The notes below the pieces were generated by a model. That model saw only the letters and a program-made list of their open reading frames with translations. It did no database searches and was not told where the DNA came from. The position numbers were made by a program, and so were the translations under genes. From positions 6,156 through 70,155 of the forward strand of contig CAWKAG010000012.1 in the NCBI GenBank assembly GCA_963847455.1: a DNA stretch of 64,000 bases, in the 5' to 3' direction. Positions 16,864 to 51,069 of the stretch are shown piece after piece (position 1 is the stretch's first letter; every line of letters starts with the position of its first letter). This stretch comes from an uncultured Acidimicrobiia bacterium. GTDB taxonomy: Bacteria; Actinomycetota; Acidimicrobiia; Spongiisociales; JAENVV01.

Positions 16864-18291
16864 TTAGGCGTTCGCCCCGAAGATCGACTTGACCTCGAGG
16901 AACTCCTCGAAGCCATGCTCGCCCCACTCGCGGCCATTGCCGGACTGTTTGTAGCCGCCGAACGGCGCATTCGGGTCGCCTAGGGCTCCGTTCACGTGAA
17001 CCATTCCGGTCCGGATCTGGCGGGCAACCCTGCGAGCCCGGTCCTGGTCGCCCGACGACACATAGCCGGACAACCCGTACTGGGTGTCGTTGGCGATGCG
17101 AATCGCATCAGCTTCGTCCTCGTAGCCGATGATGGAGACGACAGGGCCGAAGATCTCCTCCCGGGCAATGGTCATGTCGTTCGTCACGTTGGCAAACACG
17201 GTTGGCTTGATGAAGTAGCCGCGATCGTGGCCCTCGGCACGGCCCGTGCCACCGGTCACGAGTTCGGCACCTTCGGCGATGCCCGTTTCGATCAATGCCT
17301 GGATCTTGTTGTATTGCGCCTCGGAAACCACCGGACCGATCGCCGTGGCCTCGTCGCCGGGATGGCCAACCACGATGTTTTCTGCCGCTGCTTTGGCGTA
17401 GCCGGCAGCTTCGGCCATCCGGGCCTGCGGCACGAGGATCCTCGTTCCGGCATTGCACGACTGACCCGAGTTACGGCACATACCCTTGACGTCACGGGCA
17501 ATGACAGCTCCCAGGTCGGCGTCGTCGAGGACGATATTTGCCGACTTGCCCCCGAGTTCCTGGGCAACTCGCTTCACCGTCGGAGCCGCGTTCTTGGCGA
17601 CTTCGACACCGGCGCGGGTGGAGCCAGTGAACGAAACCATGTCGACCTCAGGATGCGAAGAGAGTGGAACCCCGACGTTGATTCCGTCGCCCTGGATGAG
17701 GTTGAAGACCCCGGCCGGCACACCGGCTTCGTCGAGGATCTCGGCGAAGATGATGGCGTTCAAGGGAGCCAGTTCCGAAGGTTTCAGGACCATCGTGCAG
17801 CCTGCCGCCAGGGCCGGTGCGACCTTCGTAGCGATCTGGTTGAGCGGCCAGTTCCACGGTGTGATCAAGGCACAAACCCCGACCGGTTCTTTGACCACGA
17901 GCGTCGTGCCGATCTCCTCTTCGAACTCATAGCTCTCGAGTACCCGGCGCACGGTCTTGAAGTGGTTCAAACCAGACGGCACTTGAGCCCGCGATGAAAG
18001 GGAAAACGGTGCGCCCATCTCGTCGCTGACCGCCGAGATGAGGTCATCCATGCGGGTCTTGTACACCGAGATTATTGAATCGAGGAGCTCCATGCGCTCC
18101 TCCCGGGTGGTCTCTCCATAGGTTGCGAAAGCGGCTCTGGCTGCGGTGACCGCTGCGTCGACGTCGGCCGGTCCGCCCATGGCGATGGTGGTGAGGACCT
18201 CTTCCGTCGCCGGGTTGATGACTTCGAGGGTTGTCGTGGCCGAGGGCGCCACCCACTGGCCATTGATGTAGAACTCGTGTTTGTGCTGCAT
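16864..18291 (-). CDS. NAD(P)-dependent aldehyde dehydrogenase
   Basis: ORF 16864-18519, trimmed to MQHKHEFYINGQWVAP (ATG 18289-18291). The upstream extension is just the translated intergenic repeat. Motifs: FTGSTRAG, ELGGKSANIV, catalytic Cys in GQSCNAGTRILV, EEIFGPV. Confidence 0.9.
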   Translation of the reverse strand: MQHKHEFYINGQWVAPSATTTLEVINPATEEVLTTIAMGGPADVDAAVTAARAAFATYGETTREERMELLDSIISVYKTRMDDLISAVSDEMGAPFSLSSRAQVPSGLNHFKTVRRVLESYEFEEEIGTTLVVKEPVGVCALITPWNWPLNQIATKVAPALAAGCTMVLKPSELAPLNAIIFAEILDEAGVPAGVFNLIQGDGINVGVPLSSHPEVDMVSFTGSTRAGVEVAKNAAPTVKRVAQELGGKSANIVLDDADLGAVIARDVKGMCRNSGQSCNAGTRILVPQARMAEAAGYAKAAAENIVVGHPGDEATAIGPVVSEAQYNKIQALIETGIAEGAELVTGGTGRAEGHDRGYFIKPTVFANVTNDMTIAREEIFGPVVSIIGYEDEADAIRIANDTQYGLSGYVSSGDQDRARRVARQIRTGMVHVNGALGDPNAPFGGYKQSGNGREWGEHGFEEFLEVKSIFGANA

Positions 18292-18342
18292 ATCCGGAAT
18301 CGTAGCGTCAAGTTGACCGCTCAGTTCCCCCCTTTTCACGGG

Positions 18343-18461
18343 ACGAGTGTGCTTACGGTTCGCTATATCGAGCCTGGATGCACACTCGTTGGGAACCGTC
18401 CGGGACCGAACCAGACGAGTGTGCTTACGGTTCGCTATATCGAGCCTGGATGCACACTCGT
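18343..18461 (-). repeat. Tandem pair of identical 47-nt hairpin-ended intergenic elements (18343-18389, 18415-18461)
   Basis: Two identical copies of acgagtgtgcttacggttcgctatatcgagcctggatgcacactcgt, with a 72-nt period. Each is bounded by the perfect 10-bp inverted repeat ACGAGTGTGC/GCACACTCGT. The same family occurs at 46899-47005. Confidence 0.9.
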
Positions 18462-18473
18462 CGCAGAAGGGGG

Positions 18474-18791
18474 TTACTTCTTGTTGGCGTTGGCTACCGC
18501 GACTGCACGTCTTGCCCAAGACAGGAGTTCCGCAGGGTCACCCATGACGCCTGAGGGAACCAACCAGTAAGGCATGCCGTGCTTATGTGATCCGGCGGCC
18601 TCGAAGATCGCGTCCGTGGTCTCGTCCGACCTGAGAAAGACGGCGCCTTGTTTGTCGATGATTGTGAACATCACCCCATCGCAGAAGAGTCCGATGCCTC
18701 CGAACATGCGCTTGAACGTCACCTGCCCGAGCGGAGTCCATTCCTCAGTGAGTACGTCGGCAACTTCGGCAGGAGTTCCAGCAATGCGCAT
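18474..18791 (-). CDS. TfoX N-terminal domain protein
   Basis: FKRMFGGIGLFCDGVMFTIIDKQGAVFLR and ...MPYWLVP... match the TfoX_N pattern. Confidence 0.8.
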   Translation of the reverse strand: MRIAGTPAEVADVLTEEWTPLGQVTFKRMFGGIGLFCDGVMFTIIDKQGAVFLRSDETTDAIFEAAGSHKHGMPYWLVPSGVMGDPAELLSWARRAVAVANANKK

Positions 18792-36941: not shown

Positions 36942-37825
36942 GCCAGGGCCGCCGCCGGATCACGCTCAAATGACTTTTGGCATCCAGCTGCGCAGAAGTA
37001 GTACGTCGCACCGTGCCATTCGGTCGTGAATGCGGCTGCTGCAACATCAACCGTCATCTGACATATCGGGTCGATGGCGGTTTCCGGAGCATCAGTCTCG
37101 ACCACCTGGGCGCCGGCACCGGACGCCTTGAGCGCGACCAATTCGGCGAGGATGGCCACGGCGATCTCTTCATGTTCTGTTGAGCCAAGGTTGATCCCGG
37201 CAGGTGCCCGTAATCGGGATAGCTGCTCGTCGGTCAACCCCCGATCACTAAGCCATTCCCGAACGGACGAGGCCCGTTTTTCAGAAGCAACCAGTCCGAT
37301 GTATCCGGCTCTGGTCATCAAGGCGCGTTCGAGTTCTGGCTCGTCAGCATGCCCCTGCGTAGCAATCACGACGTACGAGCGATCGCTGACTTCTTCGCCC
37401 TCGAGAGATTCGACCAGGCGACCACGCCACCCCATCACATCGGCCAAGCCAGCAAGACGCGCACACATGGGGGAGTTCCCAACGATGACGACTTCCGGGG
37501 TGATCAAGATCGGTTCCACATATACCTCCATTGCACCTTCGCTGGCACAGGCCATTGCGACAGTCGTTACCCCGTGGCGGTGGTCTTCGTCACCAATAAC
37601 CAGAAGGCGGGGGTGACCGTCGGCCAGTGCATCAAGTGCTTGGCGGACCACGGTTGGCCTTGCGCAGGCGCCACCGAGCCAGCCTTCGACCCGTCCATCG
37701 GGGTGAATGATCGCCTTCGAGCCACGTTTGCCGGAGGACGGTCCTCGTCGCCACGTCACCGTCGCCAGGACAAACGGGCGGCCCTCTTCAATGAGGTGAG
37801 CCGCCCGAATGAGCGTGGTTTGCAT
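36938..37825 (-). CDS. XdhC/CoxI-family maturation protein fused to a C-terminal YHS domain
   Basis: The N-terminus is an XdhC pattern (FVLATVTWRRGPSSGKRGSKAIIHPDGRVEGWLGGAC). The C-terminus IDPICQMTVDVAAAAFTTEWHGATYYFCAAGCQKSFERDP matches the YHS/TRASH pattern. It overlaps the coxL stop as TGATG. Confidence 0.8.
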   Translation of the reverse strand: MQTTLIRAAHLIEEGRPFVLATVTWRRGPSSGKRGSKAIIHPDGRVEGWLGGACARPTVVRQALDALADGHPRLLVIGDEDHRHGVTTVAMACASEGAMEVYVEPILITPEVVIVGNSPMCARLAGLADVMGWRGRLVESLEGEEVSDRSYVVIATQGHADEPELERALMTRAGYIGLVASEKRASSVREWLSDRGLTDEQLSRLRAPAGINLGSTEHEEIAVAILAELVALKASGAGAQVVETDAPETAIDPICQMTVDVAAAAFTTEWHGATYYFCAAGCQKSFERDPAAALA

Positions 37826-40193
37826 CAGGGCTTGACGTCGACGCCGTTGAGAGCCCCCCAGACCCGGTGTGGCAGAACTGGCATATCGATGTTCGTAACA
37901 CCCCTTGACCAGAGCGCATCCACGACTGCGTTGACGTACGCCGCCGGAGACCCGACGGTGGCCGACTCGCCGACACCTTTGGCGCCGATCGGGTGATGCG
38001 GAGAGGGTGTGACCGTTTCGCCCAGCTTGAACTTCGGTGTCTCCCAGGCTGTCGGGACCAGGTAGTCCATGAAGTTCGAACCGATACAGTTCCCATTGTC
38101 GTCGAAGCTAATCCACTGCATGTTTGCTTTGGCAAAGCCCTCCGTGAGCCCACCGGTAGATCTGACCGTCGACGATCATCGGATTGATGCGCACCCCGCA
38201 GTCGTCTACAGCGACCATGTCGACCACTTCCCAGGTCCCGTCCTCCTGGTCGACCTCGACGACGACGATGTAGGTACCGAACGGGTATGTCATGTTGGGC
38301 GGGTCGTAGTAGTGCACACCTTCCAGAGCCGGCTTCCATTCCCTCGGGATGGTTGGTGTAGGCCGCAAACGCGATGTCCTGAATCGTGACGAACGACTCA
38401 GGCGAACCCTTCACGCTGAATTTACCTACTTCCCATTCGAGATCATCCTCCGACGCCTCAAGGAGATGGGCGGCCAGCTTGCGAGCCTTCTCACGTAGCT
38501 TGCGCGCCACCATCGAGGTCGCCGCTCCGCCGACCGGAGTTGACCGGGACGCATAGGTACCAAGGCCGTACGGTGTGTTGTCCGTGTCACCTTCGATGAC
38601 CTTGATGTCGTTGGCCGGGATGCCGAGTTCCTCAGCCACGATCTGGGCAAAGGTCGTTTCGTGACCCTGTCCTTGTGACTTCACGCCGAGCTTGAGGATT
38701 GCTTTACCTGTTGGGTGAATCCGAAGCTCCGCCGAGTCGAACATCTTGAGTCCGACGATGTCGTAGTCCTTCGAAGGCCCAGCACCTACCACTTCGGTGA
38801 ACGAAGCGATGCCGATGCCGATGAGCTTGCCGTTCGGGTCCTGGTTCCGCTGCTTCTCGCGCCAGCCGTCGTAGTCGATCATCTCTTTGGCCAGCGTCAT
38901 GGCACCGTGGTAGTCGCCCGAGTCGTAGACGAATCCGGTGGGAGAGTGATAGGGGAACTGTTCCTTCTTTATGAAGTTGAGTTCCCGGAACTCGGCCGGG
39001 TCCATCCCGATCTCGTGGGCTGCCTTATCGGCGAGACGTTCAATGAGATAGGACGCTTCGGTAACCCGGAACGAACACCGGTACGCTACACCCCCCGGCG
39101 CTTTGTTGGTGAAAGCTCCCTTGGCGGTGACGTGAGCTGCCCCGAAGTCGTATGAACCCGTGCAAATGTGAAACAGGCCAGCCTTGAACTTGGTCGGTTG
39201 GGCATCGGCATAGAACGCGCCTTGATCGGACAGAATCCCGGCACGCATCCCCGTTATCCGGTTGTTCTCATCGAGCGCCAACGATCCAGTCATGTGATAG
39301 TCGCGACCGAACCCGGTGGAGATGATGTTCTCGGATCGGGATTCGACCCACTTGACGGGCTTGCCGATGACGAGCGACGCCGCCGTTGCGACAACGTAAC
39401 CCGGATAGATGGGCACCTTGTTGCCGAATCCGCCACCGATGTCCGGGGATATGATGCGGATTTTCTCCTCGGGGAGACCAGCTACCAGCGCAAACAGCGT
39501 CCGGTGGGCGTGGGGGGCTTGTGACGTCAGGTAGATCGTCACCTGGCCGGTGATCGGATTGACGTCCGAGACGCAACCGCACGTTTCGAGCGGTGAAGGA
39601 TGTGAGCGCGGATAATGGCTTTCCAAGCTGACGACCCGATGGGCGGCTGCGAAAGCGGCGTCGGTGATCGCCGCATCGCCGGCTTCCCAGGTGTACGCGA
39701 CGTTATCGGTTTGGCCTTCCTTTTCGTCGCGAATCAGCGTCTCGGTCAACAGCGACTGTTGGGGAGTGGTGATCGCTTCCAGCTCTTCGTAATCGACAAA
39801 GATCGCGGCCAGGGCGTCCTTGGCGATGTAGGGGTCGGTCGCAATTACGGCGGCAACTTCCTGGCCCTGGTAGCGCACCTTGTCGGTCGCCAGAACCGCC
39901 TGGGTGTCACCCGAAAGCGTGGGCATCCAAGCCAGGTTGTATCCCTCGAGCATGGCCCCGGTCACGACCGCTACGACGCCTTCCATCGCCTCGGCCTCGC
40001 TGGCATCGATTCCCAGGATTCGAGCGTGAGCAACCGGCGATCGGAGGATCGCCATGTGAAGCATGCCCTTGAGGACAATGTCGTCGACGTAATTGCCGGC
40101 ACCTTGGACAAACCGATCGTCTTCTTTTCGAAGTACCGAGTGTCCGACTCCTCCGACTTCAAAAGTTGTGATTGGCTCGTGAGTCGTTGTCAT
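37825..40193 (-). pseudogene. coxL: Aerobic CO dehydrogenase large subunit, form I signature; reading frame broken twice
   Basis: The protein is spread over three ORF-track pieces on the minus strand: 40193-..., 38368-38108 and 38121-37825. It carries the active-site loop GGVAYRCSFR (39066-39086). The frames rejoin as ...PEGMEAG/LEGVHYYDPP... (about 38333-38343) and ...VDGQIY/GGLTEGFAKANMQWISFDD... (about 38151-38158). Confidence 0.9.
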
Positions 40194-40194
40194 A

Positions 40195-40659
40195 TCAGTT
40201 CCCCTCGATTGCTGCGCCGGCGGCCTGGATGGACTTCACGATGTTGGTATAGCCCGTGCACCGGCACAGGTTTCCGCTGATCGCCCACCGGACTTCGTCG
40301 TCGGTAGGGCTCGTGTTCTTCTCCAAGAGCGCCTTTCCCACCAGCATCATCCCCGGGGTGCAGAAGCCGCATTGCAGTCCGTGGTTCTGCTTGAACGACA
40401 CCTGCAATGGGTGTAACTCGCCGTTCTTGAGACCCTCCACGGTCTGCACCTCGTGTCCATCCGCCGAGGCCGCAAACATGGTGCACGACTTGATCGGAGT
40501 TCCATCAAGAAGCACCGTGCACGCTCCGCAGGATGTTGTGTCGCACCCGATGTGGGTGCCAGTCATGCCGAGTTCTGTGCGGATGAAGTCCACCAGAAGC
40601 TTGCGCGGTTCGATGTCGGCCGATTGGGCCGTGCCATTGATCGTGACGGTCACTTTCAT
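40195..40659 (-). CDS. coxS: CO dehydrogenase/xanthine dehydrogenase-family small subunit, (2Fe-2S)-binding
   Basis: [16 protein letters not shown] and [10 protein letters not shown] are the two [2Fe-2S] motifs. Confidence 0.9.
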
Positions 40660-41534
40660 GACGCACCTCCCTGAGCCTGAGCGAGGGCTTTCGACAGGCC
40701 CCGTTTTGTGTAGGCATTGATGACGGCCCGCTTGTATTCGGCCGGGCCTCGAACGTCACTCTCGGGATCGCAGGCGGCCGCGGCGACGGCGGCAGCTTCG
40801 GCGAATAACTCGAGCGAAGGCGTCTGCCCGATCAGCATTTGTTCTGCCTCGGTGACTTTGAGGTTCTTCGACGCCACTGCGGTCAAGGCGATGCCGGCGC
40901 TGGTGATGGTCCCATCCTTGGCCAGATCCAGGAACGTGGCTACCGCGGCCGTGGCGTAGTCGCCGATCTTTCGTTCGAGTTTGAGGTAAGCCCCTCCAGC
41001 CGAACCGGTTGGCCGGGGGATCCGTACCTCGGTAACCATCTCGCCTTCGGCGAGTGAGTTGGTAAAGAAGTCAACGACGAAGTCGCCGATCGGGATGACC
41101 CGTTGTCCGGACGTCGAACTCGCTACGACGGACGCTCCAACCGCAAGCATTACGGAGTTCCAATCGCCTTCGGGATCGCAATGAGCGATAGATCCGGCGA
41201 CGGTCCCTCGATTGCGGACCAGAGGATCAGCTACCCAGGGCGCCGCGGATGCCATGGTTGGGCTAATCGTTTTGACGTGATCGTTGTCGACCACGTCGGC
41301 GTGTCGAGCCAAGGCGCCAATGGCCAGGTGGCCGTTGTCCGCTCGTACGTAGGCCAGGTCGGTGACGTTGTTGATATCTACAAGGTTGGCTGGCGAGGCG
41401 AGGCGCAGCTTCATCATGGGAATGAGACTTTGCCCTCCTGCCAGAACTCGTCCGTCGTGTCCGAGTTCCTGGAGCTTCGAGAGCGCTTCGTCGAGCGACT
41501 TCGGGGACCAGTACTCGAAGGCGGGGGGATACAT
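40656..41534 (-). CDS. coxM: CO dehydrogenase/xanthine dehydrogenase-family FAD-binding medium subunit
   Basis: ORF 40656-41549, with ATG 41534 preceded by GGAGGAGG. It contains [16 protein letters not shown] and a C-terminal CO-DH flavoprotein domain. It overlaps coxS as ATGA. Confidence 0.9.
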
Positions 41535-41617
41535 ACGCGCCTCCTCCAAAGGTGGTTACCTACGGAAACTACCTGCTTGCGCCATCACGTGGACCAGATA
41601 GCGGGATTCGTTTTCTC

Positions 41618-42085
41618 CTACCCTTCGGCAAGATGAGCAGGAAAGCCACCGCGCGAGATCGGTCCCCATGAATCGATGGTGATTCGGATTAGCACCTTGC
41701 CCTGATCGATCATTGCCTGGCGATATTCGTTCCAATCGGAATGTTCGCCGGAAATGACGCGGAAGTACTCGACCAGCGGTTCGACGGCGGGCCGTCCCCC
41801 AAGGACCTCGGCGATCCCATCGATCTGAACCCACTCACCGCCAAAGTCGTCAGACAGCACACATACCGACACTTGAGGCTCCCGGAGCGCGTTGATTGCC
41901 TTGGCTCGGTGGGGATATGAGGCAATAACGATTCTGCCGTCGACGTCGAGGCCCATGGTCACGGGTGACATCTGGGGGCGGCCCTCAAGGCGAGTCGTCG
42001 ATAGGATCCCGTTATGGCGCGGTCTGATGAAATCGTCTAGGACGGCTCTTGATACCGACCGGTTGGTTGCCACCTGCCGAGCCAT
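41618..42085 (-). CDS. PPOX-class (pyridoxamine 5'-phosphate oxidase-like, probably F420-dependent) protein
   Basis: 155 aa, with ...HNGILSTTRLEGRPQMSPV... and ...GGEWVQIDG..., typical of a split-barrel PPOX family member. Confidence 0.7.
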   Translation of the reverse strand: MARQVATNRSVSRAVLDDFIRPRHNGILSTTRLEGRPQMSPVTMGLDVDGRIVIASYPHRAKAINALREPQVSVCVLSDDFGGEWVQIDGIAEVLGGRPAVEPLVEYFRVISGEHSDWNEYRQAMIDQGKVLIRITIDSWGPISRGGFPAHLAEG

Positions 42086-46262: not shown

Positions 46263-46364
46263 AAGTCGCCCTCCTGGTGGACGCTTCTATCTAGTTCCTA
46301 ACCCGGAGCGTACGCCCTGAACGTGGGTTATTCAGGCGATTCGATTGCCATCTTCTTCGAGGTG

Positions 46365-46387
46365 TGTAATGATGTAATACATATTAC
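46365..46387 (+). promoter_or_regulatory. AT-rich repeat/palindrome upstream of 46406 gene (candidate operator or -10 region)
   Basis: TGTAAT-ga-TGTAAT-aca-TATTAC, which includes the perfect palindrome GTAATA-ca-TATTAC (46374-46387). It lies 19 nt upstream of the ATG and just before the RBS GAAGGAG. Confidence 0.35.
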
Positions 46388-46405
46388 GACTTCGAAGGAG
46401 CAGCA

Positions 46406-46894
46406 ATGAACGACGTAAAAGCCTGGTTTGTTGGACGACTTCCTGAGGACTGGTTCGAAGACTTCACGATTACCGGTGATCGCGACGAGATCGTGGTGAT
46501 GGGTCGTTTGGCGCCGCCGGCGGCAGGCGATCTCGACGGTGATCAGATGGCCGTCGCCGAACGCAGCCGGATTGATGGATTCCGTGAAGACACGCGATCG
46601 CAACGCATGAAGATCGCCGATCAAGCCCAGCGGACCTTTGAGCGGAAGGTCTCCTGGGGCGCGAGTTGTGGTGACACTCAGGTGCTCTTCACTCACCTGG
46701 CCGTTCCGGCCATGACGAGGCTCCGGCTCAAAGAGCGGGCGTTGCTCGATACGCTCATTGACGGCGGCGTGGCACGGAGTCGCAGCGAGGCTCTGGCCTG
46801 GTGTGTACAGCTCGTCGGTCAGCACGAAGCCGATTGGCTGGCAGATCTTCGTGAGGCATTGGCGAACGTAGAGGCAGTCCGCGACCGCCAATAG
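46406..46894 (+). CDS. Hypothetical protein with C-terminal ribbon-helix-helix-like domain
   Basis: 162 aa. The C-terminal MTRLRLKERALLDTLIDGGVARSRSEALAWCVQLV shows a strand-helix-helix pattern. The N-terminal about 100 aa is unassigned. Confidence 0.6.
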   Translation: MNDVKAWFVGRLPEDWFEDFTITGDRDEIVVMGRLAPPAAGDLDGDQMAVAERSRIDGFREDTRSQRMKIADQAQRTFERKVSWGASCGDTQVLFTHLAVPAMTRLRLKERALLDTLIDGGVARSRSEALAWCVQLVGQHEADWLADLREALANVEAVRDRQ

Positions 46895-47006
46895 CCGGAC
46901 GAGTGTGCATCCAGGTCGAGTATTCCGAACCGTAAGCACACTCGTTTCCAACGCCCGGACGAGTGTGCATCCAGGTCGAGTATTCCGAACCGTAAGCACA
47001 CTCGTT
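46895..47006 (+). repeat. Tandem pair of identical 47-nt hairpin-ended intergenic elements (46899-46945, 46959-47005)
   Basis: Two identical copies of acgagtgtgcatccaggtcgagtattccgaaccgtaagcacactcgt, each preceded by ccgg, with a 60-nt period. The terminal 10-bp inverted repeat is the same as at 18343-18461. The array starts 5 nt after the stop at 46894 and ends 31 nt before ATG 47037. Confidence 0.9.
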
Positions 47007-47036
47007 CAGGAAATGGGGGTGGGGTAGTCTCGGACC

Positions 47037-48611
47037 ATGGCGACGTACGACTTCATCATTGTTGGGGCCGGCTCGGCCGGTTCGGTTCTCGCCAATCGGC
47101 TCTCGGTCGATCCAGATATCCGGGTGCTCGTTCTCGAGGCGGGCGGCTCGAACAAACACATCAATGTCGATACGCCGGCCGCCTTCTCGAAGCTTTTCCA
47201 AACCAAGCGGGACTGGAACTACTTCACCCAACCCGAGCCGGATGCCGACGACCGGCAGCTCTATCTGCCGCGCGGCAAGATGCTCGGGGGAAGCTCTTCT
47301 ATGAACGCCATGATCTATATCCGGGGCAATCGGATCGACTACGACGGATGGGCAGCCGACGGATGTAAGGGGTGGTCGTACGAAGAGGTTCTCCCGTACT
47401 TCAAGAAGTCCGAGCACAACGAACGCGGAGCGGACACGTTTCACGGGGTGGATGGCCCGCTCAATGTGGCCGACCAGCGATCGATCAATGAACTGTCCCG
47501 GGCGTTTGTTGAAGCGGCGGTCGAGCGCGGATATCCCCGTAATCGTGACTTCAACGGAGCCGACCAGGTGGGGGTGGGTCCGTACCAGGTCACCCAGAAA
47601 AAGGGCGCCCGGTGGAGTACCGCTGACGCCTATCTCGGGCCAGCGATGGGTCGTTCGAACCTGACGATCTGCTCGGATGCGCATGCCCACCGGATCGTTA
47701 TTGAGCAGGGTCGAGCGGTGGGGGTGGAGTATCGACAGGACGGCGAGGTGAAAACCGCCCGGGCGGATGGCGAGGTCATCGTTTCTGGTGGGGCTTACAA
47801 CTCGCCGCACTTGCTCATGTTGTCGGGAATCGGGCCAGCGGAGCATCTGTCCGAGTTTGGTATCGACGTAGCCGTCGACAACCCCAACGTTGGTGACCAT
47901 CTGCAAGATCATCCGGTCATCATGAACACCTTCCACGTTCACAAGAAGGTGAGCTTGGCCCACGCCGAAAAGCCGGCCCGGCTGGCTGAGTATCTTCTCT
48001 TCAAGAAGGGCATGTTGTCGTCGAACGTCGGCGAAGCGGGTGGTTTCATTCATACCCGCGACGGGCTGGACGGCCCGGATATCCAGTTCCACTTCGCGCC
48101 GGGTTATTTCAATCGGCACGGGTTCGACGTGATCGATGGAGACGCCATGACCGTTGGGCCGACGCTTGTTGCGCCAAAGAGCCGTGGCCACATTCGGCTG
48201 CGCAGCACCAACCCGGAGGTCCACCCGGACATTCTCACGCGGGCGCTGAGCCATCCCGACGATGTCCAATCGCTGGTCGATGGCCTCAAGGTCACGAGAG
48301 ATATTGCCCACTCGAAGGTCTTCGATGAATACCAGGGTGGAGAACTGCACCCCGGCGACGACGCCAAGACCGATGATGAGTTGGTCGAATACATCCGACG
48401 AAAAGCGGAGTTGCTCTATCACCCGTCCGGAACGGCACGCATGGGGACGGACCCCGCTTCTGCAGTGGTTGATCCGAAGTTGCGGGTGTTCGGCGTTGAG
48501 GGCCTGCGAGTCGTCGACGCATCGATCATGCCGACCGTGGTGCGTGGCAACACGAATGCTCCGACCATCATGATCGCCGAGAAGGCGGCCGACCTGATTC
48601 TTAGTGACTGA
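47037..48611 (+). CDS. GMC-family FAD oxidoreductase (choline dehydrogenase-like)
   Basis: MATYDFIIVGAGSAGSVLANRLS, GGSSSMNAMIY, and the C-terminal HPSGTARMG...VVDASIMP. Confidence 0.9.
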   Translation: MATYDFIIVGAGSAGSVLANRLSVDPDIRVLVLEAGGSNKHINVDTPAAFSKLFQTKRDWNYFTQPEPDADDRQLYLPRGKMLGGSSSMNAMIYIRGNRIDYDGWAADGCKGWSYEEVLPYFKKSEHNERGADTFHGVDGPLNVADQRSINELSRAFVEAAVERGYPRNRDFNGADQVGVGPYQVTQKKGARWSTADAYLGPAMGRSNLTICSDAHAHRIVIEQGRAVGVEYRQDGEVKTARADGEVIVSGGAYNSPHLLMLSGIGPAEHLSEFGIDVAVDNPNVGDHLQDHPVIMNTFHVHKKVSLAHAEKPARLAEYLLFKKGMLSSNVGEAGGFIHTRDGLDGPDIQFHFAPGYFNRHGFDVIDGDAMTVGPTLVAPKSRGHIRLRSTNPEVHPDILTRALSHPDDVQSLVDGLKVTRDIAHSKVFDEYQGGELHPGDDAKTDDELVEYIRRKAELLYHPSGTARMGTDPASAVVDPKLRVFGVEGLRVVDASIMPTVVRGNTNAPTIMIAEKAADLILSD

Positions 48612-49317
48612 ACCTCCGCGGCGGGGGATTCTCGTCCTCGGCCGCCGACTCCGCAGCCAGGTTCGACGAGCGACCAGGATCGGTCGGCTGCTCATGAGTG
48701 GCCGATTCCGGAAGTGGGGGATTGCGACCCTGCGAGAGCCGTCCAATCCAGTCGCCGAGACCCAACGGGCCGAGTGGCTTAAGGCTGACGGATCTGTGGG
48801 CAAGCATTCAATCCGGGTGCTTACAGAAAGGGCTAGCAAAGACGTTCACGCTGATCGGTTGCTCGCTGCGTTGGTGCGCAGCCGGAGGCCGAGCCTTGTG
48901 ATCGAACTTGGTACCAACGTCGGGCTTAGCGGTACCTATCTGGCGGGTGCCTTGCCAGATGATGGGCGGTTGAAAACAATCGATCAGTCCGGGGAGCGGC
49001 AGAGGCTTGCCAGACGGCTTTTTGACGCTGCAGGCGTCGCCGATCGGATTGATGTCATCACTGGGTCATTCGTTGACTCCTTGGATGATGCGGCCCGTGA
49101 CGGTTTCGAGATCGCTTTCATCGATGGCGATCACACCTACGACGCCACCTTGTGGCTGATGGACAGCTTGCTTTCCTACGCGGCTCGGGGGTCGGTGCTG
49201 GTGCTGGACGACATCAACCATTCGCCCCAAATGCGTCGCGTCTGGCGCGATCTCCGCAGGCGGCCCGGGTTGGCGAGCCTGGCGTTGACTGACCTGGGAG
49301 TTCTGGAGGTTATCTAA
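48604..49317 (+). CDS. Class I SAM-dependent methyltransferase (O-methyltransferase family 3-like)
   Basis: GTG 48604 overlaps the GMC stop, and an alternative ATG lies at 48694. Motif I is LVIELGTNVGLSGTYLA, and FIDGDHTYD is also present. Confidence 0.7.
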   Translation: MTEPPRRGILVLGRRLRSQVRRATRIGRLLMSGRFRKWGIATLREPSNPVAETQRAEWLKADGSVGKHSIRVLTERASKDVHADRLLAALVRSRRPSLVIELGTNVGLSGTYLAGALPDDGRLKTIDQSGERQRLARRLFDAAGVADRIDVITGSFVDSLDDAARDGFEIAFIDGDHTYDATLWLMDSLLSYAARGSVLVLDDINHSPQMRRVWRDLRRRPGLASLALTDLGVLEVI

Positions 49318-49320
49318 GAC

Positions 49321-51069
49321 CTAGCCACGAACTGCTGCGGCAAGAATGGGCGCTAATGACAGTGCCGACGGTTGGGCTTCCATGGCTACCAGACCTTTGG
49401 CAATCTTGTGTGACTGTTTGTTGGATGCGAACCACAGCGGTTTGAGCGGTTGTCGGAACGGCCCGCGGATGACGGACTTCTGAGGTTCGTTGAACATAAG
49501 CGTGTTGTGGACGACGCCCCGCCCGGATCGGATGTCGTTGAGCGGATGACCGGGAAACGCTCCCCACGTAGTGCTCATGAACGCGAATCCGAGTCCCGTC
49601 CACACGTTCACCCCGACGGTCCCATAGCGGAGGTCGGCGACGGCCTGTTCAACAGCCGTGGCGACTTCTGGATCCTTCAGCGAGGCCGGGTGGACGATGA
49701 GCGACGCGCCGAGCGTTCCCCAGGCAGTTTCGTTGGCGAACCGGACGGCATCCTCGATGAAGGCGACCACTGACCGTTCGCTCTTGAGCGGCGCCTCTCC
49801 GAAGATCCCTGCAAATGCCTCGACGGCAAAACATGAGTGTTCAGGGTCTTCGCTGTCGAGATCATGGATCAGTGTCCACGGCACGGCACCGTCATGGTGT
49901 TTGCCGTGATTACGAACGGATGGATGCGACGCTTGGAAGTGTTCCCACCGTTCCCTGGCGCCCGGGTAGTACGGGTCGCGATCGGGTGTGGCATGAAGGG
50001 CATCGGAAATCGCATCCAGTAGCCGTTCACGCTGGTTCCACTGCTCATGGGTTATGACGACCCGGGTTGCGATGCAATTGAAGCCGGCGTTGTGGGTAAG
50101 CATGCCGGCGATGTTCTCCCCCTGATAGGTGAGGTCCTTCTCGGACCACGGACCTGGGACGACGATGACGGGACTCACATTGCCGAGTTCTGACGAGATC
50201 GGCTTTGTGAGAAGGGGTTCATTGGCGGCCTTACGGGCGGGCGCATCTGGTCCCGATCCGAACACGATCGCGTCATGGGTCTTGTCTGACCCGGTGATGT
50301 GGACCGAGTCCACCTTGGGATGGTTCGCCAGATGGCTGCCCACGTCGGATCCGCCGTAGACAACGCCCATGAAGTCACGACCGATAAGCCCGGCGAAAAC
50401 CTGTTCGAGGAACGGTCCGATGTACTCGTTGACCGGGTTCATCTTCAAGATGACGACGGCATCTTCGACGAACATCTTGTAGAGCGTGTCGGTGGGGGCG
50501 ATCGAAGCTATGTTGCCTGCCCCAAGGACCAGCGCCAATTCCGGAGTTCGCTTTGCGTGTGGTTGATAGAGGGTGGCCATGGTCGAGCTGAGGTTTCCAG
50601 GCGTTACCCCTGGCTGCATCCAAACTTCACCTGAGTACCCCTGCCACAGAACCTTGTCCCAGTTGTCCACCGGAAAGACCTGAACGACGGTCTGCCCGTT
50701 GGGCCGGGTCGTGACTGGTCCGGGGATCGTGGGCTGGCCCGTTTCGCGGATCGCTTGAAGGGACCGGATCAGCAGGCGGGCGTTGCGAATCGTCAGCACC
50801 GGCCCGGCATGCCACTCCTCACCGGCGACGGGGTCATCCATGGAGATCCCCTTCGCGTCGCAGGCGGCCGCTACCCATGCCTCACCGACCGTCTGAGCGT
50901 TTTCGATCACCGATTGCAGAAGCGCGATTCGCTCGTCGATGTTGACATCGATCCAAGCTTGTCGGAACTCGCTCAAGACATTGACAAGTCCGTCGAGTTC
51001 CTCGATCGGGGTCGGTTGAATGTGTGAAGCGCCCTCAGGCTTGATGATGCTGCCGGCCAGTGCGGTCAT
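49321..51069 (-). CDS. Aldehyde-dehydrogenase-superfamily protein (long, atypical subgroup)
   Basis: ORF 49321-51117, with ATG 51069 preceded by GGAGGAAG. It contains LVLGAGNIASIAP, HITGSDKTHDAIVFG, and a Cys in NAGFNCIATRVVIT. Confidence 0.8.
   Translation of the reverse strand: MTALAGSIIKPEGASHIQPTPIEELDGLVNVLSEFRQAWIDVNIDERIALLQSVIENAQTVGEAWVAAACDAKGISMDDPVAGEEWHAGPVLTIRNARLLIRSLQAIRETGQPTIPGPVTTRPNGQTVVQVFPVDNWDKVLWQGYSGEVWMQPGVTPGNLSSTMATLYQPHAKRTPELALVLGAGNIASIAPTDTLYKMFVEDAVVILKMNPVNEYIGPFLEQVFAGLIGRDFMGVVYGGSDVGSHLANHPKVDSVHITGSDKTHDAIVFGSGPDAPARKAANEPLLTKPISSELGNVSPVIVVPGPWSEKDLTYQGENIAGMLTHNAGFNCIATRVVITHEQWNQRERLLDAISDALHATPDRDPYYPGARERWEHFQASHPSVRNHGKHHDGAVPWTLIHDLDSEDPEHSCFAVEAFAGIFGEAPLKSERSVVAFIEDAVRFANETAWGTLGASLIVHPASLKDPEVATAVEQAVADLRYGTVGVNVWTGLGFAFMSTTWGAFPGHPLNDIRSGRGVVHNTLMFNEPQKSVIRGPFRQPLKPLWFASNKQSHKIAKGLVAMEAQPSALSLAPILAAAVRG

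Follow-up and report, generated by a model that had tools for sequence, protein, structure and literature searches.

A probable family of small palindromic intergenic repeats in uncultured Acidimicrobiia

In Proteobacteria, small palindromic repeats influence the stability of mRNA, the polarity of operons and the rearrangement of genomes. To our knowledge, hardly any have been described from Acidimicrobiia, a class that is abundant but largely uncultured. In a 64,000-nt stretch of DNA from an uncultured Acidimicrobiia bacterium (GenBank assembly GCA_963847455.1, contig CAWKAG010000012.1, positions 6,156 to 70,155; hereafter the window), two intergenic loci each carry a tandem pair of identical 47-nt hairpin-ended units. 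Locus 1 lies between a TfoX-like gene and an aldehyde dehydrogenase gene, and locus 2 lies upstream of a GMC oxidoreductase gene. The units probably belong to a family of small palindromic repeats dispersed over intergenic sites, rather than being a control element of the aldehyde dehydrogenase gene. The best reading is a previously undescribed family resembling repetitive extragenic palindromic (REP) sequences and miniature inverted-repeat transposable elements (MITEs), with each of the two window loci locally duplicated. The element is a multi-copy, intergenic, stop-codon-proximal palindrome with invariant arms, which is gained and lost in blocks of ~72 nt and has no tie to gene function.

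REP elements, bacterial interspersed mosaic elements (BIMEs) and REP doublets forming hairpins (REPINs), tagged with GTAG or CGTC, have been described in Proteobacteria (PMC3733652, PMC3116915). Inverted dimers dominate in REP families, with head-to-tail dimers absent or rare, and a survey of REPs in eight phyla makes no mention of Actinobacteria (0 occurrences; PMC3733652). Like REPs, the repeats described here are short, palindromic, extragenic and present in many copies, mostly 3' of open reading frames (ORFs) and between co-directional or convergent genes. They are also often clustered, vertically persistent and linked to rearrangements. Unlike REPs, which have a loop of 2-20 nt, they have a 47-nt core with a 27-nt interior, and no unpaired GTAG or CGTC tag is seen in their flank profile. 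Their arrays (at least 17) are all direct and head-to-tail with a 71-73-nt period, with no inverted dimers, and their host phylum is Actinomycetota. No REP-associated tyrosine transposase (RAYT) was found in the ~1.3 Mb of loci fetched for comparison, with tests that are weak. The behaviour of the family is REP-like or small-MITE-like, and the classical REP tests failed on tag, inverted dimers and interior size.

Mycobacterial interspersed repetitive units (MIRUs; Supply et al. 1997) are used as variable-number tandem repeats. The repeats of the window share with MIRUs an actinobacterial host, a direct tandem arrangement of intergenic ~50-80-nt repeats between operon genes, and a copy number that varies among relatives. 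MIRUs, however, are not strong palindromes and contain short ORFs overlapping the flanking stop and start codons, whereas the unit here is a hairpin, and its periods (71, 72 or 73 nt) are not bound to multiples of three. Small MITEs with terminal inverted repeats, such as the Correia/NEMIS elements of Neisseria and SMAG of Stenotrophomonas, are co-transcribed with neighbouring genes. The present repeats resemble them in having terminal inverted repeats around a variable centre, intergenic insertion, and both filled and empty sites. They are much shorter than typical MITEs, no target-site duplication was recognised at the one filled/empty site, and neither a parent insertion sequence nor orphan half-sites were found in the fetched DNA.

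Anatomy, conservation and distribution of the repeats

At locus 1, a repeat finder returned two 48-nt copies with 100% identity, 18342-18389 and 18414-18461, with a period of 72 nt. Each 47/48-nt copy is closed by a perfect 10-bp inverted repeat, ACGAGTGTGC...N27...GCACACTCGT. Searching the window for this arm-N27-arm pattern gave four matches, at 18343-18389, 18415-18461, 46899-46945 and 46959-47005, and no matches were found in 100 shuffles of the window. The first two are the identical hairpin-ended units of the initial annotation, which the repeat finder and the pattern search bear out. The other two are the pair that it had placed 28 kb away as the same family, giving a density of two loci per 64 kb. 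The locus 2 copies belong to the same family, are identical to each other and have a 60-nt period. The two loci are mutually inverted on the + strand, so that each has an equal orientation relative to its own downstream gene. Folding of the 47-mers of the window as RNA gives strong hairpins (-20.6 to -25.1 kcal/mol, z ~ -5.4 to -5.8), and two copies folded as DNA gave -11.9 and -14.7 kcal/mol. The fold consists of the outer 10-bp stem and a short, imperfect inner stem, in agreement with the second stem that had been proposed within the 27-nt interior.

Two scans were made for further copies. The first, with exact arms and a 20-40-nt gap in one public genome per species, returned at least 108 stretches. 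The second was made in metagenomes with the inner shoulders only (GCATCCAGG N9-15 GAACCGTAAGC), the arms not being demanded, and returned 44 further stretches. A profile search was then run over all fetched sequence (fetched loci carry L numbers below), which found at least 121 copies in 84 clusters. At least 85 copies are distinct when flanks are included, and at least 64 cores are distinct. The family is carried by at least seven Acidimicrobiia metagenome-assembled genomes (MAGs). In the first scan, family matches of 47 nt with window-like interiors were found in contigs of JAOUMT01 (at least 15), CAJQPD01 (at least nine), CAWIFX01 (at least five) and JAHEDI01 (at least three). CBDTUI01 and JAGXFS01 are further Acidimicrobiia MAGs with the family among the matches listed, and among these matches the 47-nt type with a window-like interior is seen solely in Acidimicrobiia MAGs. 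As far as sampled, the family is confined to a clade of uncultured Acidimicrobiia. No copy was found in viral contigs or plasmids. Searches of Rfam returned no relevant family, either at gathering thresholds over the whole window or at permissive E-values over 18200-18600, and literature searches by name and by sequence returned no paper on the repeat, with chance primer matches only.

The family consensus is ACGAGTGTGC ATCCAGGCTCGATATWNCGAACCGTAA GCACACTCGT, and a second subtype, GGTCGGNTAT, takes in window locus 2. In a profile of 85 copies, positions 2-15 and 34-46 are essentially invariant, and positions 16-33 are variable. The core is closed by a foot, (A)CGAGTGTGC...GCACACTCG(T), that is invariant over 9-10 bp. 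Inside it lie the shoulders, ATCCAGG ... CGAACCGTAA, which are semi-conserved and enclose a centre that varies. The terminal core bases alternate between A and T with no covariation; thus, the real foot is 9 bp. The arms are also intact in the inner-motif scan, which did not require them: (A/T)CGAGTGT...ACACTCG(T/A) is present in 47/47 family matches of that scan, in which five substitutions were seen, none of them compensated. RNAalifold analysis of 40 distinct cores recovered the outer stem alone, with eight invariant pairs and zero compensatory changes. Covariation of the inner stem was also looked for in the family, and none was detected. As the arms are invariant and compensatory changes are lacking, the conservation is of sequence and not of pairing alone, and it persists where coding DNA differs by 10-25%. 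This pattern suggests that a protein recognises the foot or that copies keep being replaced, and it speaks less for a free-folding RNA selected for its structure.

The signal in the flanks is weak (C at -5, R at -1, Y at +1 and G at +5), and their composition is C-rich from -8 to -15 and G-rich from +7 to +16. An extended stem formed by copy-specific complementarity of the flanks was considered and rejected. Per-position pairing equals the shuffle expectation, and the duplex energy of matched 5' and 3' flanks is marginally better than that of mismatched ones (p = 0.07), so the flanks are compositional, not covarying.

Head-to-tail arrays with a period of 71, 72 or 73 nt make up 17 of the 39 clusters in the first sample, as pairs and one triple, and a second triple is present in the metagenome set. 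Similarity is greater among the copies of one array than between loci. The array spacers (24-26 nt) are unrelated in sequence and have a common composition, G-rich in the first half and C-rich in the second. This looks like the composition expected for two abutting units, each consisting of a head (~12 nt), core (47 nt) and tail (~12 nt). The full unit is therefore ~72 nt long, that is, the 47-nt core plus degenerate C-rich and G-rich flanks of ~12 nt each. With a spacer of 13 nt, window locus 2 is a short and atypical variant.

Gene contexts, orthologous sites and gene-content change

Gene calls were made with a codon-usage model trained on the fetched loci. By these calls every family copy is intergenic, as the initial annotation had held for the units of locus 1. 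The 39 clusters are found in 21 co-directional, 8 convergent, 4 divergent and 6 undetermined gene contexts. In the co-directional contexts, the asymmetric interior has the same orientation as transcription in 9 cases and the opposite orientation in 12. The element is nearer to upstream stops than to downstream starts. Across 54 cluster sides facing a gene 3' end, the median gap from stop codon to core is 13.5 nt; in several cases the stop codon extends over the first core base. These gaps are 46% C, and a CCC run is present in 35/54 of them. A CCC run no more than 14 nt past the stop is found at 67% of 21 element-associated stops, compared to 22% of 178 element-free stops, and TAA is over-represented among element-associated stops. 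The C-run may belong to the element, or it may reflect a preferred target. A stop with an immediate C-run, for example TAACCCCCTTCG, is seen at three non-orthologous sites; the window case is at 18462-18476.

The neighbouring genes are mutually unrelated and ordinary. They encode Aldedh, GMC oxidoreductase, TfoX_N, ABC-2 permease, LacI, MnmA, GNAT and GH5 proteins, as well as glucose/sorbosone dehydrogenase (GSDH), TauE, Rrf2, an Rv2466c-like nitroreductase, an EtfA-like protein and DUF559. The element is not specifically related to the TfoX-like gene or to either oxidoreductase. A locus-specific status tied to the TfoX-like and aldehyde dehydrogenase genes is not supported, as copies of the element adjoin many genes of unrelated function, in both orientations. 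Many copies in unrelated contexts were what the initial annotation itself had named as the mark of a generic REP-like repeat. In one fetched locus (L036:6317-7652), a gene of the DUF559/REase_MTES_1575 type (Vsr-like endonuclease fold) is bracketed by tandem repeat pairs, all in one orientation. It is the only nuclease-like gene seen between repeats, and its orthologue in L114 (8146-8838) has a ~640-nt internal deletion.

Orthologous sites were compared for both window loci. Locus 1 has an orthologue in L001 (flank identity ~85%) with one copy in the same orientation, and orthologues in L006 and L008 (flank identity 77-83%) with one copy, inverted or symmetrised, and with the TfoX_N gene missing. 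The locus 2 orthologues in L086 (~90%) and L075 (~82%) each carry one copy of the same subtype. With two further loci added to the two of the window, one versus two copies are seen at four orthologous sites in all. Element and subtype are kept at orthologous sites in genomes that are 77-90% identical. Since relatives hold one copy where the window holds two, the window duplications are recent and local, and such duplication accounts for the 100% identity within a locus and the differences between loci, as had been suggested from the window alone. Two of the spacers in a triple array (L105) are identical, which is what unequal exchange between the two cores of a pair would produce. A filled/empty site is also found, with a copy in L133 and L123 and no copy in L044, where 8 nt of the empty site correspond to ~73 nt. 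This difference equals the array period, so the unit is one of ~72 nt. The proliferating or mobile-type behaviour that had been proposed for the unit is supported.

Gene-content change is enriched at element junctions. In orthologous alignments, an indel of at least 250 nt abuts 18/31 element-bearing junctions, compared to 22/197 element-free junctions and 13/78 element-free junctions that are at least 60 nt long. The corresponding odds ratios are ~11 and ~7, figures that are indicative only, as the events are non-independent and large intergenic regions are natural indel boundaries. Where L085 has a pair, L091 has two elements with a 1.8-kb GH5-like gene between them, and where L067 has a pair, L042 has one element and one pair with 2.7 kb between them. 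TfoX_N (18474-18791) is present in the window, L001 and L111, and is missing from the junction of the ABC-2 and aldehyde dehydrogenase genes in two related MAGs (L006:2183-2293 and L008:1118-1146). At this junction, the ABC-2 stop TGA overlaps the first base of the single inverted or symmetrised repeat copy. The GMC oxidoreductase and methyltransferase genes (~2.4 kb, window 46899-49321) are absent at L135:2771-2853, a site on a metagenome contig with one repeat copy and the same outer neighbours. REPs are known hot spots of recombination and insertion, and the association with indels thus fits this class.

Two further differences from the window were seen. A 4.7-kb block in the window (36955-41627), encoding a CoxS/M/L-type molybdopterin dehydrogenase (Fer2_2, FAD_binding_5/CO_deh_flav_C, MoCoBD) and XdhC, is absent from the ~90% identical L086 (2028 joined to 2042), with no repeat copy at either boundary. 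L111:1-324 is 98.5% identical to the window over TfoX_N and ABC-2, with a wholly different inter-core spacer and unrelated DNA beyond the pair. This was not relied on as evidence of recombination at the repeat, as L111 is a 1.2-kb metagenome contig that may be a mis-join at the repeat.

In the window, locus 1 is read on the (-) strand, with the TfoX_N-domain gene (18474-18791) upstream and the aldehyde dehydrogenase gene (Pfam Aldedh, 16864-18291) downstream, both outside the element. The TfoX_N stop TAA (18474-18476) is followed by a C-rich head of 12 nt (CCCCCTTCTGCG, 18462-18473) and then by the first core (18415-18461), which reads ACGAGTGTGC ATCCAGGCTCGATATAGCGAACCGTAA GCACACTCGT. After a spacer of 25 nt (18390-18414), of which the length (24-26 nt) but not the sequence is kept family-wide, comes the second core (18343-18389), which has 100% identity with the first and adjoins the aldehyde dehydrogenase gene. 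A G-rich tail of 16 nt (CCCGTGAAAAGGGGGG, 18327-18342) lies 3' of it, and the AAGGGGG of this tail is complementary to CCCCCTT of the head. Locus 2 is on the (+) strand, downstream of an unannotated 162-aa ORF (46406-46894). The first core (46899-46945; subtype GGTCGAGTATTCC) lies 4 nt past the TAG stop of this ORF, followed by the unusually short spacer of 13 nt (46946-46958) that results in the 60-nt period, and by an identical second core (46959-47005). The second core ends 31 nt upstream of the ATG of the GMC oxidoreductase gene (47037-48611, identified with Pfam), which is absent from the orthologous L135 site together with the methyltransferase gene (48604-49317).

Five mechanical ORFs cross the repeats: 16864-18519 (-), 18277-18570 (+), 18347-18547 (+), 46328-46999 (-) and 46755-48839 (-). 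They would give spurious N-terminal extensions or overlapping hypothetical proteins with duplicated peptide strings, and they are the source of the strings described in the initial annotation. No Sigma-70 promoter or intrinsic-terminator consensus was matched at the elements of either window locus, and no T/U tract was found 3' of the stem. Canonical intrinsic termination is thus unlikely. A tRNA/tmRNA scan found none. Two leaders are conserved at the nucleotide level among orthologues, despite diverged intergenic surroundings: GACGCTACGATTCCGGRT (18292-18311) directly before the aldehyde dehydrogenase ATG, in four genomes, and TTGGGGGTGGGGTAGTCTCGG (47013-47033) before the GMC oxidoreductase start, in three genomes. 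Neither resembles a standard Shine-Dalgarno sequence at standard spacing.

Origin and possible function of the repeats

The units lie just 3' of stop codons, singly or in head-to-tail arrays of two or three, and the arrays expand and contract locally. Spread of the family may have been transposition-like or recombinational, driven in trans by a protein that would recognise the invariant foot. The hairpin would be transcribed into 3' untranslated regions and intercistronic RNA, where in either orientation it could protect upstream 3' ends and mRNA or attenuate read-through, and the repeats may be preferred break and join points in gene gain and loss.

Several points weigh against this explanation. 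A transposase or RAYT-like gene was not found in the ~1.3 Mb of fetched loci, although the tests applied (HUH/Y regular expressions, phmmer with IS200/RAYT queries, and Pfam on few ORFs) were weak ones. The sole weak phmmer match, in L076 (E = 0.034), is an antisense ORF inside an alcohol dehydrogenase gene and was rejected. Neither a parent insertion sequence with matching ends nor orphan half-sites are present in the fetched DNA. One clean presence/absence site was found, and no target-site duplication is evident there, with flanks that are 20-30% diverged. The element is stably retained at orthologous sites and its arms do not vary, which selection on a sequence bound by a protein would explain at least as well as a purely selfish element would. 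The suggested role at the RNA level is drawn by analogy with REPs. In addition, sampling was ascertained through exact matches, and consists mostly of MAG and metagenome contigs, which are potentially chimeric at repeats.

The repeats may instead be a selected structural signal and not mobile DNA, that is, an orientation-independent hairpin after stop codons with a foot bound by a host protein, acting as a non-canonical (U-tract-less) terminator, 3'-end stabiliser or operon insulator. The tight tie to stop codons (median 13.5 nt), the tolerance of both orientations and the strong hairpins are consistent with this, as are the retention of the element at orthologous sites (77-90% identity) with invariant arms and the stability of subtypes at these loci. 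However, the stem is not followed by a T/U tract, no terminator consensus is matched, a purely structural signal would not require dozens of loci to share one sequence, and compensatory changes are zero. The filled/empty site and the shifts in copy number moreover show gain or loss in ~72-nt blocks. We therefore consider a structural signal as the whole explanation rather unlikely, although it overlaps with the dispersed-repeat explanation, as an exapted repeat could do both. A related possibility is a recombination site at the edges of exchangeable gene blocks, cassette-like as integron attC, with a site-specific recombinase acting on the foot. Like attC, the element is an imperfect palindrome with conserved ends and a variable centre, placed directly after ORFs, with variable gene content. 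The 7- to 11-fold enrichment of gene-content indels at element junctions, the two cases in which a tandem pair corresponds to elements separated by one or more genes (L085 vs L091, L067 vs L042), and the absence of TfoX_N and of the GMC oxidoreductase/methyltransferase block from orthologous sites elsewhere would all be expected of such a site. Yet the core ends in ACGAGTGTGC/GCACACTCGT and not in the attC core sites (RYYYAAC/GTTRRRY), no integrase or recombinase was found nearby among Pfam-scanned neighbours, and the orientation relative to the adjacent ORF is mixed, with no cassette arrays. Most flanked genes are in conserved synteny, the element is dispersed among syntenic housekeeping genes, and in the "empty" state a pair is present instead of one site. 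With the indel counts also non-independent and repeat-sized intergenic regions being natural indel boundaries, a dedicated recombination site seems quite improbable.

Locus-specific regulation in cis, by a tandem riboswitch, attenuator or operator co-regulating the aldehyde dehydrogenase and GMC oxidoreductase genes, could be suggested by the position of both window pairs upstream of oxidoreductase genes in equal relative orientation. The census of contexts contradicts this co-regulation: neighbours are many and unrelated, and orientation is opposite to transcription in 12/21 co-directional contexts (same in 9). The orthologous aldehyde dehydrogenase site of L006/L008 has the element inverted or symmetrised, upstream stops are nearer than downstream starts, and neither covariation (zero compensatory pairs) nor an Rfam match is seen. 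Such regulation is thus very unlikely. Degenerate mini-arrays like those of clustered regularly interspaced short palindromic repeats (CRISPR), with a 47-nt repeat and 24-26-nt spacers, would explain near-identical repeats separated by constant-length spacers of unrelated sequence. However, the repeats are scattered over dozens of loci with one to three repeats each, mostly singletons, and two spacers in the L105 triple are identical. Each spacer changes from G-rich to C-rich halfway, as abutting unit flanks would, and there are no cas genes nearby, which leaves a CRISPR-like origin with hardly any probability.

The foot in other actinobacteria and the significance of the family

Beyond the Acidimicrobiia clade, matches among those listed have the same foot with entirely different, usually perfectly palindromic interiors. 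In Leucobacter luti (L016, L027, L093, L102), a foot-closed hairpin repeat is present in at least seven copies at four loci, with a direct half-copy and a conserved CCTCCAC tail as extras. Foot-closed hairpins also occur among the matches listed in at least four copies in Nocardioides terrigena (L013, L025, L094, L100) and at least two in Aldersonia (L095, L106). A foot-closed tandem pair with a 60-nt period is found in an Acidimicrobiaceae contig (L098:1272-1376), and single foot-closed copies are found in two Acidimicrobiia contigs (L029:3024, L090:3428). In ~45 species of Nocardia, a perfect 40-42-nt hairpin with the same 10-bp foot lies ~60 nt past the stop of ctaD, the gene for cytochrome c oxidase subunit I (e.g. 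L003:1147-1187).

The chance of a long hairpin containing a given 10-mer was estimated at ~1e-6 per position, giving tens of expected chance matches. Singletons, the Nocardia ctaD hairpin included, were therefore treated as unproven relatives. The multi-copy foot-bearing families are more than would be expected for an arbitrary foot. It is conceivable, if doubtful, that (A)CGAGTGTGC...GCACACTCG(T) is the recognition site of a conserved actinobacterial protein and the tag of an Actinomycetota-wide super-family. Such a foot-tagged super-family would be analogous to the GTAG and CGTC super-families, marking, and perhaps mediating, gene gain and loss at junctions. The shared foot outside the clade may instead be coincidence.

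In the window, nothing points to a special regulation of either the aldehyde dehydrogenase gene or the GMC oxidoreductase gene. The practical value of recognising an uncatalogued family in an understudied class lies in annotation, assembly and strain typing. Once catalogued, the family would keep annotation pipelines from spurious ORF extensions through the repeats, flag contig positions that are prone to assembly breaks or wrong joins, and provide natural markers of variable copy number for strain tracking in metagenomes. In addition, the invariant arms amid 10-25% divergence, together with the enrichment of gene-content change, make these repeats a tractable case for asking what maintains such elements.

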